A stretch of DNA of 64,000 nucleotides from NCBI GenBank assembly GCA_964589445.1, contig CAZPQX010000002.1:91882-155881 (forward strand). Reading direction: 5' to 3'. Both the position numbers and the translations under genes were made by a program. Below, piece by piece: positions 2,843 to 8,298 of the stretch. Positions within the stretch are counted from its first letter, which is position 1. Each line of letters opens with the position of its first letter. Below the pieces are notes generated by a model. The model did no database searches. It was given only the letters and a program-made list of their open reading frames with translations, and was not told the origin of the DNA. Source of the stretch: an uncultured Candidatus Saccharibacteria bacterium (lineage in GTDB: Bacteria > Patescibacteriota > Minisyncoccia > Phycocordibacterales > WO2-35-19).

Positions 2843-3427
2843 ATGGAAAATGAAGAAGTGGGGGTGGTAGGGAATAGTGCAGAAGGCACTACAGAAAACA
2901 GTGTAGGAGTGCCTAGTGCTGTAGAGGCGCCTGTGGAGTCTAGTGTAGAAGCTCCGCAACCCGTCGCTGATACACCTGTGCAAACAGAAGTACCGGCGCC
3001 CGAGCAGCCTGCTGTAGAAACTCCAGTACAAGTAGAAATGCGTACAGAGTCTGCTCCTAACCCTACTCCTGAACCTGTGGCAGTGCAGAGTGATGCTCAA
3101 TCTACAAACTCAATAACAGAGATGGCTCAAGTGCCAGAGCAGGTGGAGCAGCCTGCAACGGAACCCATGCTTCCTGAGAAAAATAAAAGTTTTATAAAAG
3201 AGCTTTTTGCTAAAGGTGCGGCAAAAATACAACTAAAAAAGAGATTGGGAATAGAAAAAATCATGAGTTTGTTTGCAAAGAAACATCAAATAACAAATGA
3301 CGAGGTGGAGAAAGCTCTGCATGTCTCTGACGCTACAGCTACGAGGTACCTTGAGCAATTAGAAAAGGAAAATAAGATCAAACAAAACGGAAAGACTGGC
3401 AAGGGAGTCACATATACAAAAAACTAG
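2843..3427 (+). CDS. hypothetical protein: acidic P/E/V-rich low-complexity N-half, C-terminal winged-HTH-like segment
   Basis: 194 aa; C-terminal ...ITNDEVEKALHVSDATATRYLEQLEKENKIKQNGKTGKGVTYTK resembles a wHTH DNA-binding domain. Confidence 0.45.
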   Translation: MENEEVGVVGNSAEGTTENSVGVPSAVEAPVESSVEAPQPVADTPVQTEVPAPEQPAVETPVQVEMRTESAPNPTPEPVAVQSDAQSTNSITEMAQVPEQVEQPATEPMLPEKNKSFIKELFAKGAAKIQLKKRLGIEKIMSLFAKKHQITNDEVEKALHVSDATATRYLEQLEKENKIKQNGKTGKGVTYTKN

Positions 3428-3430
3428 GTT

Positions 3431-4813
3431 TTAACTCCTCTGATCCTCTGGGTCAAAGATGGATTTGGGGAGGGGGTCGCCGTTTATGAATTGTGAAATC
3501 CTCTTTGCGCCGAAGATGGAAGGTAAAATGCCGACGCCGTTGCAGCCGAGGTTGTAGAGGAGAGTAGGATTTACTGGCTCGGGACCTACGCGCCTAATAC
3601 CATTTGGAGTGTAGCCCATGAGGCCGTGCCAAGAAAAAGAATATTCTATTTTTTCGCCTGGGTATTTGGCATAATTTTTGCTCAAAAAGTCGTCTATCGT
3701 GTAATTTGTTTCTTCGGAGTGGAAGTCGTGGCGAGAGTAGGAGGCACCGTTTGGCAACACCTTTTCAGGTCCGCCGGTGCAGACTAAGTTGTATGAATCT
3801 TTCCCTTCGTGCTCGTGGGGGCGCCTCGTGAGATAAAAATAATTCTCGCCGGTCGGGTCGCTATTTTTGTCGTTTGTCTTTGGGAAATAGCTTATGGCGA
3901 TGGGGGAGTTGTTCATCGGTTCGAAGTAGCCAGACATGTAGCCGATGCGGCCGTTTACAGAATGATGAAAACTTGTGTCTATGTCACGCCCTGCTTGATT
4001 GTTTATGGTGAAATTTTCAAAACCGTTTGTGCATAGGACCACTCTCTCGGCTATTACTCTATGCTCTAAAACTTTGAGCTCTGTACTTTTTTCTTTGAGC
4101 AGCACTTCTTTGACGGGGCTGCCTTCATAAAAATCAAAACGCTCAGGATATTTGGCTATAAGGTAGCCTAAGAGCTCTTCGGAAAAGAGGGCGCTGTTTA
4201 GACATCCTTTTTGGTAGGAAAGGCAAGCTATGTAATCAGGATTGTCTGTTTCTAAAAGAGACATCAAATCTTTTTGAGGGACTATCTTGTATAAGTCTTT
4301 ATATTCTACGGGTATGTTTTTGAGCTCCGGCCACTCTTCGGCTACTACTATGGACTCGGTTTGCAAGCCGCCCGTGACGCGATGGCGGTTGTTTTGTAAA
4401 TGGAGGATAAGGTTTTCGAAACTAGAAACTCCAGCATAGCCGACAAATCTATACACCGGCACTTGGAGACGCGCTTCTTCTATTATTTCGTCTAGCAAAA
4501 TCCAAGCTGATTCTACTGACCTTTGACCGTCTATCGCCAAATCAAAACCAAACTCTTCTACCAAGTCACTGAGCGGCCTTTCGAAATAGCTGGCTATTTG
4601 CCCGGCGTTGTGACCTGTGGCTCCGTGGGCTACTTTGTCGGCTTCTAGAAGTGTGACTTTTTTGTCTGTATTTTTGAGAGTGAAAAAGGCTGTGGTGATG
4701 CCGGCTATGCCGCCGCCTACGATGGCTACATCGGTACTTATGTCTCCGCTTAAAGGTACGACTGGCCTAGATTGCTTGAGCTGCTGTATCCACGGTGAAT
4801 GGTTGGGTATCAT
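3431..4813 (-). CDS. FAD-dependent oxidoreductase (DAO/glycine-oxidase-like)
   Basis: N-terminal Rossmann dinucleotide motif VAIVGGGIAGITTA; 460 aa. Confidence 0.7.
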   Translation of the reverse strand: MIPNHSPWIQQLKQSRPVVPLSGDISTDVAIVGGGIAGITTAFFTLKNTDKKVTLLEADKVAHGATGHNAGQIASYFERPLSDLVEEFGFDLAIDGQRSVESAWILLDEIIEEARLQVPVYRFVGYAGVSSFENLILHLQNNRHRVTGGLQTESIVVAEEWPELKNIPVEYKDLYKIVPQKDLMSLLETDNPDYIACLSYQKGCLNSALFSEELLGYLIAKYPERFDFYEGSPVKEVLLKEKSTELKVLEHRVIAERVVLCTNGFENFTINNQAGRDIDTSFHHSVNGRIGYMSGYFEPMNNSPIAISYFPKTNDKNSDPTGENYFYLTRRPHEHEGKDSYNLVCTGGPEKVLPNGASYSRHDFHSEETNYTIDDFLSKNYAKYPGEKIEYSFSWHGLMGYTPNGIRRVGPEPVNPTLLYNLGCNGVGILPSIFGAKRISQFINGDPLPKSIFDPEDQRS

Positions 4814-5156: not shown

Positions 5157-5582
5157 CTAGCAGTCGCCACCTTCAAATTGCTCTAGGGTGCACCAAGGGC
5201 CGCCGCTTGGATCTACTTGCCACACTCCGCCAACTTTCCTTGCATGAATGATTATGTTTCCAAGGTCGCCTTCTTCACCTTTATTTACTATCATCTCCAC
5301 TGCATCATTTTTCCTTTTTTCTATCGATATATCGTATGAATTGGGCACACCTTTTGGAAGTTTGTATTCGTTCATAAAGGTGTCGACGGAATTTTTGAGC
5401 TGTTCTTTTTCGATATCTGAAAGTTCTATATTACTTGTCAGGGTTATCTCATTTTTTATCTGGGCTTTTTGTTCAACTGTAAGGTTGTCTCTGTCACTAG
5501 TATTTTTGTTTGTGTATGTGTAGGTAAATACCCCTGAGGCTAGTATCAGAATAATAAGTATAATTTTTTTATTCTTGGTCAT
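5157..5582 (-). CDS. hypothetical secreted/lipoprotein-like protein
   Basis: N-terminal hydrophobic signal-anchor KKIILIILILASGVF; 141 aa. Confidence 0.4.
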   Translation of the reverse strand: MTKNKKIILIILILASGVFTYTYTNKNTSDRDNLTVEQKAQIKNEITLTSNIELSDIEKEQLKNSVDTFMNEYKLPKGVPNSYDISIEKRKNDAVEMIVNKGEEGDLGNIIIHARKVGGVWQVDPSGGPWCTLEQFEGGDC

Positions 5583-5976
5583 TTATTTTATAAATACTAT
5601 TACAGGAATTAGAGAGATCTTGAATTTTTAATAGCAACTCTTTTAAGTTGCCGCCTTCTGCCATGGTCTGTGCATCGTCTAATTCTTCCCATACAAGCCT
5701 CGCGTAATTATCATCTCCTGAGCGTAACATATAAGTATAGGCAAGCTCTACTCGGAATATCACTTTTTCTTCTAGGGTTGTGCCTGGCCTGTCTGTCTCT
5801 TCGTATCTTTCATTTTTCCATTTAAAAAGTTTTTCTGGACTAAAATCATCCGGTATTTTGCTTAAGTCTAAACCAAATTCTGTAAAAAAAACATCAATCC
5901 TTCTTTTTAAATTTTCAAAGCTTTCTGCAATAGTAACTCTATTTTCTCGTTCAATTTTTTTATTTAAATCTTCCAT
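5569..5976 (-). CDS. hypothetical acidic protein; first gene downstream of sRNA candidate 1 and its terminator
   Basis: 135-aa ORF, overlaps next gene by 14 nt (operon-like). Confidence 0.4.
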   Translation of the reverse strand: MEDLNKKIERENRVTIAESFENLKRRIDVFFTEFGLDLSKIPDDFSPEKLFKWKNERYEETDRPGTTLEEKVIFRVELAYTYMLRSGDDNYARLVWEELDDAQTMAEGGNLKELLLKIQDLSNSCNSIYKINDQE

Positions 5977-6001
5977 GTAATTAAGTATATCAGAATTTTT
6001 T

Positions 6002-6101
6002 TATGAAAATGAAAAGGTCCGAGAGTTCATCACTCTCGGACCTAGGGTGGTAACCGCGGCTCGCTTTTGGAGCGGGCCATGACAGAATTACCATCCCAAC
6101 A
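6002..6101 (-). ncRNA. candidate structured sRNA-1 (~95 nt), identity unknown
   Basis: GC-rich island immediately downstream of a minus-strand TTGACA-N16-TATACT promoter; 5' GGGAUGGUAA pairs with UUACCACCC; ends in hairpin GGUCCGAGAGU...ACUCUCGGACC + UUUUCAUUUU. Confidence 0.4.
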
Positions 6102-6107
6102 TAATTA

Positions 6108-6135
6108 AGTATAGCATATATAAAAAACTTGTCAA
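6108..6135 (-). promoter_or_regulatory. sigma70-type promoter TTGACA-N16-TATACT (copy 1)
   Basis: Plus-strand tgtcaa 6130-6135 and agtata 6108-6113; 16-nt spacer. Confidence 0.55.
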
Positions 6136-6178
6136 GTATGAAAATGAATTATAAATGTATTTAAAAGGGGAGGGTTTT

Positions 6179-6442
6179 TATGAAAATGAAAAGGCTCGGA
6201 GACATCTTACGATAATCTTCCGAGCCAAACTTTAGAAGAGTGATACTTCCTCCCTACGTCTACTGCGAGTCGGCTAAATAGTGCCGCCACCAGACCCCGC
6301 ACATCAGCAACCTGCTGACCGGGGGAGTTAAACATCAGAGCTGTCTCCAGTAGTGGACCGCCTACGCGTATGGGGCGATGAAGAACTAAACGAGCCCGTG
6401 ACGCGCTGCGGCCGACCATAAAACTGGACTACCACTCTTCTG
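6179..6442 (-). ncRNA. candidate structured sRNA-2 (~260 nt), identity unknown (6S/SRP/other not resolvable by eye)
   Basis: Downstream of perfect-consensus TTGACA-N16-TATAAT; 5' CCAGAAGAGUG pairs with 3' CACUCUUCU (closing helix); ends in hairpin GGCUCGGAAG...CUCCGAGCC + UUUUCAUUUU. Confidence 0.45.
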
Positions 6443-6448
6443 GTATCA

Positions 6449-6476
6449 ATTATAGCATATATAAAAAACTTGTCAA
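6449..6476 (-). promoter_or_regulatory. sigma70-type promoter TTGACA-N16-TATAAT (copy 2, perfect consensus hexamers)
   Basis: Plus-strand tgtcaa 6471-6476, attata 6449-6454; surrounding ~80 bp duplicated from 6095-6180. Confidence 0.6.
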
Positions 6477-6522
6477 GTATGAAAATGAATTATAAATGTA
6501 TTTAAAAGGGGAGGGTTTTTAT

Positions 6523-6554
6523 GTATACTTTTGAAAAAGCGGGTATGGTTTAGT
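6523..6554 (+). repeat. partial duplicate of the tRNA-Gly promoter -10 region plus first 16 nt of tRNA-Gly
   Basis: gtatacttttgaaaaagcgggtatggtttagt identical to 7488-7519. Confidence 0.7.
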
Positions 6555-6637
6555 CTGTCTATTGATTAAAATATTTGGTTTGTTATAATTGTATTCATAT
6601 TTGGGGTTACCCACGTTCCCTCGAAAGAGGGAGAATA

Positions 6638-7027
6638 TCATGAATAAAGACGGAGAAATCCGTCCTTTATTTTTATAATATCTTTTTCGTCTAGAGTTCC
6701 CATTTTTTCATACATTCTCAAAAAGCTTAGAACTCTAACTTGTGCTAAGTTGGCGACAATGTCCTTTCCTTGAAAATTTATTTCTGTATACCAAGTTCCA
6801 GTTTTTCCTTTTGTTGAAAGAGGTATCGCGAGGAAACCATTTACACTTAATTTTTTATAAATATAAACTGGTCTAGAAAATGGCTTTCCTTTACCATTGA
6901 CCTCTATTCCTACATTTTCTCCGATAGCACACCACCAAACTTCTCCTTCTTTAAATAAAGGTGGCTTGTGCTCGTTTTTATGAATCTTTTCTTTTAGTCC
7001 AATCCATTCTAAAAATCTTTTTATCAT
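6638..7027 (-). CDS. MazF/PemK-family endoribonuclease-like toxin, no adjacent protein antitoxin ORF
   Basis: 129 aa; KEGEVWWCAIGENVGIEVNGKGKPFSRPVYIYKK...FLAIPLSTKGK...VANLAQVRVLS parallels MazF/EndoA motifs (GDVY..D...G.E..G.RP..V..., P.TS..K, Q.R..D). Confidence 0.55.
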   Translation of the reverse strand: MIKRFLEWIGLKEKIHKNEHKPPLFKEGEVWWCAIGENVGIEVNGKGKPFSRPVYIYKKLSVNGFLAIPLSTKGKTGTWYTEINFQGKDIVANLAQVRVLSFLRMYEKMGTLDEKDIIKIKDGFLRLYS

Positions 7028-7111
7028 TTTTAAAAATTTGTATCTTTTAAAATTAGTTGCATGAGATATTTAAATTATATCAATAAATATGATGATAATG
7101 GTGTTTGTTTA

Positions 7112-7365
7112 GGTAATAAGAAAGACCGCGTCCTATTGGGCGCGGTCTGTGAGGATTCTTGGAGCGTTCCAGTGTTTTCGCTCCTCAGGTCTTTGACCAA
7201 ATGATCCTCTTTGAAAAAGAGTCTGTTTCCAGGTCTCTCTGGAGTAGTGGTTACTGGAAGGAACACACTCCCGACGGGGTTTTCACCTGTCGTAAACTCA
7301 CGAGATAGTCACAACAGACCAATCCATACCACCTCCTTGCGGAGCAGGTAAGCTCGTGATTGTCT
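7112..7365 (-). ncRNA. candidate structured sRNA-3 (~255 nt) transcribed toward the MazF-like gene
   Basis: Starts ~7 nt downstream of TTGACA-N16-TATACT; contains CUCC-GCAA-GGAG (GNRA hairpin) and CACGAG...CUCGUG pairing; ends in AGACCGCG...CGCGGUCU + UUUCUUAUU. Confidence 0.45.
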
Positions 7366-7371
7366 GTTTAT

Positions 7372-7399
7372 AGTATAGCAGAACTATGGAATTTGTCAA
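7372..7399 (-). promoter_or_regulatory. sigma70-type promoter TTGACA-N16-TATACT (copy 3)
   Basis: Plus-strand tgtcaa 7394-7399, agtata 7372-7377. Confidence 0.55.
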
Positions 7400-7503
7400 T
7401 AGCAAAGTTAATTTTGTCTATGAGTATGGCAAAATATGTTTAAAAATAAGGGTTTTTTAGGAATTGGTAAAAATGAAGTACTTTGGTGTATACTTTTGAA
7501 AAA

Positions 7504-7574
7504 GCGGGTATGGTTTAGTGGTAGAATGCGGCCTTCCCAAGGCTGAGACGGGAGTTCGATTCTCCCTACCCGCA
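7504..7574 (+). tRNA. tRNA-Gly (anticodon CCC)
   Basis: Acceptor GCGGGTA/TACCCGC, anticodon stem CGGCC/GGCTG with loop TTCCCAA, T arm GGGAG-TTCGATT-CTCCC, discriminator A; TATACT -10-like element 10 nt upstream. Confidence 0.8.
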
Positions 7575-7583
7575 CACTAAATT

Positions 7584-7868
7584 TTGTTTAAAATTATGTT
7601 CTATGTATATGTTCTCGGTAGTTTGAAAGATAAAGATTTATACATAGGTTCTACTAATGATTTAAAAAGACGGGTGATAGAACATAATTCAGGAAAAGTT
7701 TTATCTACTAAAAATAGAGCCCCGTTTAGTCTCCTTTACTACGAAGCTTATACTACTGAGGGTGAAGCTCGAGATAGGGAGGCTAGTTTAAAACTCCGTG
7801 GTCAAGCTAGAGTCGGCTTGCTAAAAAGGATTTCCTTTACTATAAAACTTTTCAAAAACAAAAATTAG
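7584..7868 (+). CDS. GIY-YIG nuclease-superfamily small protein
   Basis: 94 aa; FYVYVLGSLKDKDLYIGSTNDLKRRVIEHN = GIY-YIG motif; followed by hairpin gtgcgggcgtacccgcac. Confidence 0.7.
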   Translation: MFKIMFYVYVLGSLKDKDLYIGSTNDLKRRVIEHNSGKVLSTKNRAPFSLLYYEAYTTEGEARDREASLKLRGQARVGLLKRISFTIKLFKNKN

Positions 7869-8094
7869 TGTGCGGGCGTACCCGCACAATAAGGAACGAA
7901 GTGACTATATTGTGCGAGGTAAGCAAAGTAAACTGCTTTACTTTGCGTGGGAGTGAGAAGCGAAAACTTGGAGCTTCGCAAGACCTTTGATAATTTTTAT
8001 GAGCTTTGCGAAATAAAAATAGAAAAGGTGTACAGCTTCTGTAGGAAGGCGAAAGCCGCAGGCATGTTTTTTGAGCACAAAAAACAGCCGAGGC

Positions 8095-8201
8095 GGGGTC
8101 GCGGAAATTTTGTTTTGACGAAAACAAAATTATCCGTGACCGATTCTCAGTCTTGCTGATTTTGTTACTGGTCCTGTAAGGACCGATTCTTTACCCGCAC
8201 A
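8095..8201 (+). repeat. tRNA-linked conserved hairpin element (GGTCGCGG...CCGTGACC) followed by two partial direct copies of the tRNA-Gly 3' end
   Basis: Homologous to 1573-1612; cgattctc (8141-8148) and gaccgattctttacccgcaca (8181-8201) echo tRNA-Gly 7557-7576. Confidence 0.55.
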
Positions 8202-8298
8202 TTTTCTATAGAGATAGCTTTGTTGACTTATATACCTAAAAGCTGTACAATATATAGTAGAAAAAGGTTTTGATAAACTCTTCTGAAAGGATGGCACC

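Follow-up and report, generated by a model that had tools for sequence, protein, structure and literature searches.

We analysed a 64,000-nucleotide (nt) stretch of contig CAZPQX010000002.1, which belongs to an uncultured Candidatus Saccharibacteria bacterium. This stretch is referred to here as the window. It contains a lone gene, mazF, for a MazF-type toxin. Comparison across about 100 related loci indicates that the conserved partner of this gene is a small RNA, predicted to be made from the opposite strand at the 3' end of mazF. We think the chances are about even that the locus forms a self-contained module of ~0.55 kb, with one gene for a toxin and one for an RNA antitoxin, in which antisense control of the mazF message would be the most likely mechanism. 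An earlier sequence-only reading of the window had also proposed an RNA partner for the toxin. Comparative evidence again points to an RNA. However, the partner is not the upstream RNA at positions 7112-7366, as that reading had it, but a convergent RNA at ~6597-6675. The corresponding promoter-driven gene, on the + strand at 6562-6675, overlaps the 3' end of mazF and had been overlooked.

A predicted convergent small RNA at the 3' end of mazF

Features of the locus are listed in Table 1. The small RNA is predicted to begin ~40 nt past the mazF stop codon and to run into the 3' end of the gene. It comprises a 5-nt leader, two hairpins (H1 and H2), a terminator hairpin (H3) and a U-tail. The RNA is complementary to the mazF 3' untranslated region (UTR) over its full length and, in the clade of the window, also to the last 12 codons. 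We built a covariance model of the small RNA from 74 sequences. The model has a sole match in the 64-kb window, at 6595-6649 on the + strand (46.8 bits, E 5e-9). The RNA of the window folds at -29.9 kcal/mol (z = -4.5). No match to the region was found in Rfam, and the RNA family is absent from that database.

Table 1. Coordinates of mazF, the convergent small RNA and neighbouring features in the window.
Feature	Position	Strand	Basis or detail
mazF (MazF/PemK-fold toxin gene)	6638..7027	-	intact 129-residue open reading frame
Small-RNA promoter, TTGATT-16-TATAAT with TG extension	6562..6589	+	-35 at 6562-6567, -10 at 6584-6589; sigma-70 type
Convergent small RNA, candidate RNA antitoxin, ~80 nt	~6597..~6675	+	covariance model and fold; start and end predicted
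Hairpin H1 (UGGG-GUUA-CCCA)	6602..6613	+	covariation
Hairpin H2 (UUCCCUC-GAAA-GAGGGAG)	6616..6633	+	all 6 modelled pairs change on both sides
Hairpin H3 and U-run, probable small-RNA terminator in the clade of the window	6649..6664	+	terminator scan; inside the last mazF codons
Candidate own promoter of mazF, extended -10 (TGATATAAT, TGnTATAAT)	7074..7082	-	read from sequence
sRNA-3, GC-rich RNA candidate	7112..7366	-	GC content, fold, promoter, 3' hairpin
sRNA-3 promoter, TTGACA-16-TATACT with TG extension	7372..7399	-	11/12 consensus score
sRNA-1, GC-rich promoter-RNA-terminator unit	6005-6102	-	tandem with sRNA-2
sRNA-2, GC-rich promoter-RNA-terminator unit	6195-6443	-	tandem with sRNA-1
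33-nt exact direct repeat, left copy	6522..6554	.	tRNA-Gly nt 1-16 and the 17 nt 5' of it
33-nt exact direct repeat, right copy	7487..7519	.	part of intact tRNA-Gly(CCC) (7504-7574)

The small RNA is conserved in structure, strand and linkage

We focused on 78 distinct loci encoding homologues of the toxin. In all 78, an element of ~45 nt directly follows the mazF stop codon. The RNA is predicted to begin with a conserved A. Its leader reads A-Y-A-U-U, H1 has 4-5 base pairs, the linker is 3-4 nt long and H2 has 6-10 base pairs. The promoter is conserved in position as well as in sequence. The -10 element ends exactly 8 nt before a conserved ATT(C/T)GG motif in 72 loci. Promoters scoring at least 10/12 occur at 69% of the loci, compared to 0.6% of shuffles, and a TG extension is present in 42. 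Of the 78 loci, 59 have four or more U among the 8 nt following H2; in most other clades H2 itself is the predicted terminator. The clade of the window has a weak tail after H2, and a GRCGGAGAAA hairpin recurs downstream of it.

Base pairing is preserved despite sequence change. At one pair of H1, C-G is found 44 times and U-A 40 times. At another, the counts are 64 for G-C and 21 for C-G. No one-sided changes occur at these two pairs. Overall, 93.6% of the cells at paired alignment positions can pair, against 78.2% in shuffles; none of 500 shuffles reached this value and slid controls gave 62% at most. Cells in which both sides of the pair had changed numbered 143, with 43.6 expected from shuffles. 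The pairing is also strand-asymmetric. There are 29 G-U pairs on the antisense strand and 10 on the sense strand, and predicted folding is also better for the antisense strand (Wilcoxon p = 2.6e-4).

Linkage to mazF was assessed from both sides. The covariance model gave 91 matches, in 87 of 88 sources. Every match is on the strand opposite mazF and, with the exception of one locus (L074), abuts the 3' end of the gene. The lone source without a match is a contig that breaks off 10 nt past the mazF stop codon. Two extra matches correspond to second mazF copies, one of them a pseudogene. A further match was at the edge of a locus and its mazF partner was later recovered. At L074, the small RNA is 1.5 kb from mazF, having been displaced by an insertion. 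The insert (2888-4438, ~1.5 kb) is a repeat element with repeated short open reading frames (ORFs) that carry the motif HRETVE..VVVRR.DVSTI.ME. From the RNA side, we scanned a metagenome collection with a 19-mer derived from the leader and H1. This returned 17 matches. One is a chance match in a coding region, with no match to the model, and the remaining 16 are genuine copies with promoter and H2. An intact convergent mazF lies beside 13 of the genuine copies. The other three adjoin decayed remnants: one is frameshifted, and the other two are copies of one gene, of which only the first 18 codons are left.

Conservation extends to unpaired bases. The A-U-U of the leader and the C-G of the linker are invariant across loci with proteins that have diverged to ~47% identity. 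Two divergent variants of the RNA, both with the H1 sequence CGAC-AAUUA-GUCG, were also seen. The variant at L122 (3374-3430, - strand) is paired with a mazF homologue at 47% identity. The variant at L089 (3770-3830, - strand), a weak match to the covariance model, adjoins a membrane-protein gene, has no mazF and is maybe an orphan copy.

In some homologues (L013, L021, L026-L028, L030, L033, L045, L047, L050, L061, L065 and L068) the ORF reads through the small-RNA element. Hence, one strand of this DNA specifies a protein tail and the other, as predicted, the RNA. The resulting C-terminal extensions are exemplified by ...KNRPPAVSGGSRG, and the small-RNA -10 element then abuts the stop codon. 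As an alternative, we considered that the element after the stop codon might encode a peptide. This was rejected because the stem length varies by non-multiples of three.

The lone toxin gene encodes a MazF-fold protein

By sequence, modelled fold and catalytic residues, the mazF product is a member of the MazF/PemK family, predicted to be toxic and to have RNase activity. Its sole Pfam match is PemK_toxin (PF02452; residues 26-124, 29.8 bits with a cut-off of 23.1, E 7.5e-7). The phage family phrog_9567, described as 'MazF-like growth inhibitor', is a better match (residues 4-122, E 7.6e-15). B. subtilis EndoA/MazF was the top match in a profile search of the PDB (E 9e-5). Searches of NCBIfam and PADLOC with the toxin gave no match. 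We used 36 homologues to generate an AlphaFold2 model (predicted local distance difference test score 84). The best 50 matches to this model in the PDB, identified using Foldseek, are all MazF/MoxT structures (top E 2.3e-7, probability 1.00, template modelling scores 0.6-0.78). The 129-residue ORF had been called MazF/PemK-like from its letters. Pfam, phrog_9567 and the structure-based search all bear this out.

Catalytic positions are retained. R52-P53, which is invariant in the family alignment, corresponds to Arg25-Pro26 of B. subtilis MazF, where Arg25 is catalytic. S/T71-T72 is also kept, 2-3 alignment positions from Thr48 of the B. subtilis protein, with the exact register of the Thr uncertain. 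Outside the Pfam PemK domain, the family has a specific N-terminal helix that is amphipathic and basic (MIKRFLEWIGLKEKIH; assigned to residues 2-18 or, more widely, 2-25; window 6951-7024, - strand). F5, W8 and K12 of the helix are invariant and its basic residues are K3, R4, K12 and K14. Canonical MazF proteins do not have this helix. Possible roles are RNA binding and shielding of the substrate groove.

No conserved protein antitoxin accompanies mazF

MazF toxins are the classic type II toxins, and annotation assigns them to this type by default. We used Pfam to search for a MazE-like protein among the ORFs flanking mazF in the window and found none. One flanking ORF encodes a GIY-YIG protein and the others are of unknown family. 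Nine small ORFs around mazF likewise had no Pfam match at E<=1. On the evidence of both searches, the claim of the sequence-only reading that the toxin has no MazE-like partner was correct. We then extended the analysis to 92 distinct loci. A MazE/PemI protein gene is absent from all of these. Clustering identified no conserved family of neighbouring ORFs within 600-700 nt either side of the toxin gene. The most widespread such family is found at 8 of the 92 loci, and those 8 are antisense artefacts. The genes upstream of mazF vary with context; they include a membrane protein gene after a tRNA, glycosyltransferase genes, an mreD-like gene, rpoC-adjacent genes and genes for a large secreted protein and an amidase.

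The toxin gene usually has its own promoter

In the window, the candidate -10 element of mazF (7082-7074) is 48 nt 5' of the ATG. It sits between this start codon and the terminator of the upstream RNA, hereafter sRNA-3. A 10-codon ORF (MQLILKDTNF; 7028-7066, - strand) is present between the candidate promoter and the mazF ATG. Across the family, 33 of 79 loci have a -10 element with its end 5-9 nt 5' of the mazF start codon, and 24 of the 33 include a TG extension. The corresponding figure for control ATGs is 3.5%. Loci with an extended -10 element at this position include L006-L008, L011, L017, L025, L037 and L065. Hence, the toxin gene usually appears to bring its own promoter, often at a leaderless position. 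The location of the -10 element at the start codon in many family members suggests leaderless toxin mRNAs. With its -10 element 48 nt away, the window copy is an exception. The toxin promoter is weak, consisting of a -10 element only, and faces the consensus promoter of the small RNA. RNA-antitoxin systems typically set a weak promoter for the toxin against a consensus promoter for the RNA.

The upstream RNA lies outside the conserved module

The sequence-only reading had described a promoter, a GC-rich structured RNA and a hairpin with U-tract upstream of mazF. These all exist as sequence features. The GC content of sRNA-3 is 0.46-0.52, compared to 0.16-0.33 in its flanks, and the predicted fold has a minimum free energy of -86.8 kcal/mol (z = -3.3). 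The hairpin and U-tract at the 3' end are ~85 nt before the mazF ATG; the terminator scan did not list this hairpin, owing to its loop of 10 nt. As had been stated, sRNA-3 is not a tandem-repeat array: Tandem Repeats Finder detected no repeats in the interval 5900-7500.

The same reading held that the promoter/terminator module is repeated nearby. This is so. Similar units are present at sRNA-1 and sRNA-2, which have a 79-nt promoter module in common (97% identical; 6104-6182 and 6445-6523). An identical 20-nt stretch follows the terminator in both (5998-6017 and 6175-6194). Their bodies are unrelated, with fold z-scores of -6.7 and -3.4. The idea that the upstream RNA might be a housekeeping RNA, raised by the earlier reading, was examined for all three candidates and rejected. 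None has an Rfam match (at gathering level or E<=10) and none was identified by ARAGORN. Hence, we found no RNase P, signal recognition particle, 6S or transfer-messenger RNA, no T-box and no riboswitch. An Rfam search of 5900-7650 at E<=10 gave nothing credible over 6595-6675 or 7112-7366, and the only gathering-level matches in the 64 kb are two tRNAs.

The upstream arrangement had been likened to that of ToxIN: an RNA, a terminator and then the toxin. This layout is not conserved among homologues. Using blastn, we compared sRNA-3, sRNA-2 and sRNA-1 with 96 loci encoding mazF homologues. Nothing credible was found, sRNA-3 being present in 0 of the 96; one 16-nt match for sRNA-2 is due to chance. 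Elsewhere, the gap upstream of mazF is 73 nt or less, with one case of overlapping genes. Hence, the gap is too small for a 255-nt RNA. We also examined syntenic relatives, identified via CysS (Paceibacterota, 74% CysS identity, with the order CorA-CysS-tRNA-Gly kept). At the equivalent site these have no mazF and none of sRNA-1, sRNA-2 and sRNA-3. A search of viral contigs for sRNA-3 gave no match. Contigs that carry the neighbouring 135-residue protein break inside the repeated promoter and are therefore uninformative as to whether sRNA-3 is present or absent. From these comparisons, sRNA-3 is an unrelated neighbour outside the conserved module.

The module is mobile and widespread

At E<=1e-3, we found 271 homologues of the toxin, mostly in metagenome-assembled genomes (MAGs) of Patescibacteria. 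A profile search of a representative library yielded 1664 representatives at 50% identity (E<=1e-10). Several genomes have two copies of the module. The co-resident small RNAs differ from each other, in H2 for 8 of 8 pairs and in H1 for 6 of 8. Pseudogenised toxins keep an intact small RNA. One copy of the module is inside the mreB-mreC-mreD-pbp2 cluster of cell-shape genes. Complete modules were also found on GC-rich contigs of Alphaproteobacteria-labelled MAGs (L073, Methylocystaceae; L077, Hyphomicrobium; L088, Hyphomicrobiales; L096, Alphaproteobacteria) and on a contig classed as viral (L122, IMG/VR). The occurrences on Alphaproteobacteria-labelled and viral contigs reflect either horizontal transfer or binning contamination. 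The best reading of these data is that the mazF gene, its own promoter and the convergent small RNA behave as a compact, mobile, selfish module that is widespread in Patescibacteria. We base this on the unrelated contexts, the two copies per genome, the tendency of the toxin to decay first and the presence of the module on Hyphomicrobiales-labelled and viral contigs.

In the window, two copies of a 33-nt direct repeat bracket the small RNA, mazF and sRNA-3. The bracket is specific to this genome. It looks like the product of an insertion that duplicated the 5' part of tRNA-Gly; no integrase was seen. The block from ~5157 to 7500 is absent from the syntenic relatives. Hence, it has the appearance of a lineage-specific island next to tRNA-Gly. 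Past the tRNA gene, a 94-residue GIY-YIG ORF (7584-7868, + strand) is flanked by inverted repeats of 21 nt (7569-7589 and 7856-7876), which take in the 3' end of tRNA-Gly. The interval 7567-8205 also has three occurrences of a 14-nt motif, TACCCGCACA(C/A/T)T.., spaced 312-313 nt apart. This GIY-YIG region may represent a small mobile element, next to the tRNA gene, that encodes a nuclease.

Comparison with known toxin-antitoxin systems

The toxin resembles those of the type II systems MazEF and PemIK (Kid-Kis). It has the MazF fold, a PF02452 match and a catalytic Arg with a nearby Ser/Thr, and is encoded by a small, mobile, multicopy gene. Unlike in MazEF and PemIK, none of the 92 distinct loci has a MazE/PemI gene and the predicted partner is an RNA. 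The conserved N-terminal helix is an extra. Furthermore, the toxin gene is often predicted to be leaderless with its own promoter, rather than being the second gene of an operon. No protein antitoxin, with an AbrB, ribbon-helix-helix or Phd fold, is adjacent to mazF. Hence, the system is not type II.

The geometry is that of type I systems in which a convergent antitoxin RNA overlaps the toxin gene at the 3' end. Examples are txpA/RatA, bsrG/SR4, bsrE/SR5 and yonT/SR6 of B. subtilis and the par locus of E. faecalis (Fst, RNA I/RNA II). In common with these, the locus has a small RNA with its own strong promoter, convergent orientation, complementarity to the 3' end of the toxin gene, an intrinsic terminator and a compact layout. 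There are also differences. The toxin is a 129-residue soluble protein with an RNase fold, not a membrane peptide of fewer than 60 residues. The RNA is shorter, at ~50-80 nt, with a sequence that is conserved throughout a superphylum. We found no second site for pairing at the start of toxin translation. Type I requires a cis-antisense RNA to the toxin mRNA; here, the geometry alone is found, at 78 of 78 loci, and the transcripts are predicted. Since the toxin is not a small membrane peptide, the system is not a classical type I system. By analogy, it would work most like a 3'-overlap type I system equipped with a type II-class toxin.

The type I system SymE/SymR of E. coli provides a precedent. 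SymE is an RNA-cleaving toxin with the AbrB/MazE fold, and SymR overlaps the 5' end and ribosome-binding site of its gene. Hence, in SymE/SymR an RNA-cleaving, MazEF-related toxin is held in check by a cis-antisense RNA. The present system differs in having the MazF fold rather than that of AbrB/MazE, and in having the overlap at the 3' rather than the 5' end.

Type III systems (ToxIN, CptIN, TenpIN and AbiQ/antiQ) combine an endoribonuclease of Kid/MazF-related fold with a structured RNA antitoxin and have no protein antitoxin. These properties are predicted here too. However, the RNA consists of one unit instead of an array of tandem repeats. It is downstream and convergent, rather than upstream with an intervening terminator. 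Finally, the toxin belongs to the PemK family by Pfam and Foldseek, not to the ToxN/AbiQ, CptN or TenpN families, and PADLOC gave no match. The system is not type III by architecture. We found no description of a MazF paired with a convergent small RNA in the searchable literature.

How might the small RNA control the toxin?

Our preferred explanation, which we hold with about even confidence, is antisense control. The toxin would be a MazF-fold endoribonuclease, from a subfamily that has no MazE partner. Its partner would be a small RNA of ~50-80 nt, transcribed on the opposite strand from its own strong sigma-70 promoter and consisting of two conserved hairpins and a terminator. This RNA would pair with the mazF mRNA along its 3' UTR and, in the clade of the window, also over the last 12 codons. 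Such complementarity makes antisense control of the toxin mRNA the most likely mode of action. Control might be exerted via duplex-triggered decay, by collision of converging polymerases, or both.

Several observations weigh against this explanation. Transcription of either strand is a prediction from sequence. No intrinsic terminator for mazF was seen on the sense strand, so how far the two transcripts overlap is an assumption. The invariant unpaired bases of the leader and linker are not needed for control that is purely cis-antisense, and fit it poorly. They suggest a sequence-specific partner, for which the MazF dimer, with its additional basic helix at the N terminus, is one candidate. 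At the mazF translation start, duplex energies are no different for cognate and non-cognate pairs (p = 0.42), and cognate-specific complementarity is absent from codons 19-48 (rank 0.50). Hence, any antisense action would be limited to the 3' overlap. To our knowledge, type I toxins are small membrane peptides, with the exceptions of SymE and RalR. A weak excess of trans pairing over shuffles (mean z = -0.65) was traced to the likeness of H2 to a PPLFKEG-coding hairpin and we have not counted it as evidence.

A different mechanism could operate with the same module and the same small RNA. The RNA may bind the MazF dimer directly, as a structured pseudo-substrate in the manner of type III systems, with mRNA overlap being incidental or secondary. 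We regard this as possible but somewhat doubtful. It would account for unpaired RNA bases staying invariant while the proteins diverge, and the basic amphipathic helix could be an RNA-binding addition. Intact RNAs persist beside dead toxin genes. At some loci, such as L016, the RNA ends before the coding sequence, and at L074 the two are well separated. It is also general knowledge that ToxN of type III systems has a Kid/MazF-like fold. Conversely, the small RNA has neither tandem repeats nor processing sites, and its gene is convergent and downstream instead of upstream in the same operon. If only free RNA mattered, the strict convergent geometry over 78 loci would be unexplained, and binding between RNA and protein is itself hypothetical. 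In the same tentative spirit, MazE may have been replaced by a single-unit, repeat-free, convergently encoded RNA that binds the toxin dimer with the help of the N-terminal helix. The system would then be a hybrid of type I geometry and type III mechanism, and its RNA the first such antitoxin in the MazF superfamily.

Other explanations depart further from antisense control by a dedicated antitoxin. The MazF-like protein might be a non-toxic nuclease for RNA processing or regulation, with the RNA serving as its substrate, its cofactor or an antisense brake or insulator. There would then be no toxin-antitoxin pair. The family is very widespread in Patescibacteria, the helix and strongly conserved RNA sequence could signify a dedicated ribonucleoprotein, and the toxicity of the protein is a prediction. 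However, patchy occurrence, multiple copies, varied contexts, pseudogenes and the crossing of phyla form the pattern of a selfish module, not of housekeeping. The catalytic Arg and Ser/Thr are retained and the best family match is to a phage growth inhibitor. We think this explanation unlikely. The element after the stop codon might instead act as DNA. In this case it would be a recombination or cassette site that mobilises the ORF, similar to the folded single-stranded attC sites of integrons. The ORF and its structured 3' element do occur together in many unrelated contexts, and Watson-Crick covariation alone cannot separate DNA from RNA. The consensus sigma-70 promoter at a fixed distance, the U-rich tail after H2 and the strand-asymmetric excess of G-U pairs all favour a transcript, and no recombinase is linked to the element. 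These points make a DNA site highly improbable. Least credible of all is that sRNA-3 is the antitoxin or regulator, in a ToxIN-like order of promoter, RNA, terminator and toxin. The layout exists in the window, and sRNA-3 is within the same 33-nt repeat bracket as mazF. The two may have arrived together, and this bracket is the sole hint of joint travel. Against this stand the absence of sRNA-3 from homologue loci and syntenic relatives, the short upstream gaps elsewhere and the lack of tandem repeats. Furthermore, a separate -10 element for mazF lies between the sRNA-3 terminator and the gene, and the toxin is of the PemK family rather than a ToxN, AbiQ, CptN or TenpN protein.

Implications

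If antisense or direct control by the small RNA is correct, this would be the first candidate RNA antitoxin for a MazF toxin. Toxins under RNA control are, as a rule, either type I membrane peptides or type III enzymes that resemble ToxN and come with repeat arrays; this rule would no longer hold. A module of 0.55 kb would allow a direct test of whether the target of the RNA is the message or the protein. With over 100 covarying examples and no entry in Rfam, the RNA would define a new family of small RNAs. Conserved small-RNA genes for which both promoter and terminator are clear are few in uncultivated bacteria with reduced genomes, and this would be one of them. Finally, if the small RNA is the sole conserved partner of these toxins, many 'orphan MazF' calls in genomes of the Candidate Phyla Radiation would be explained.

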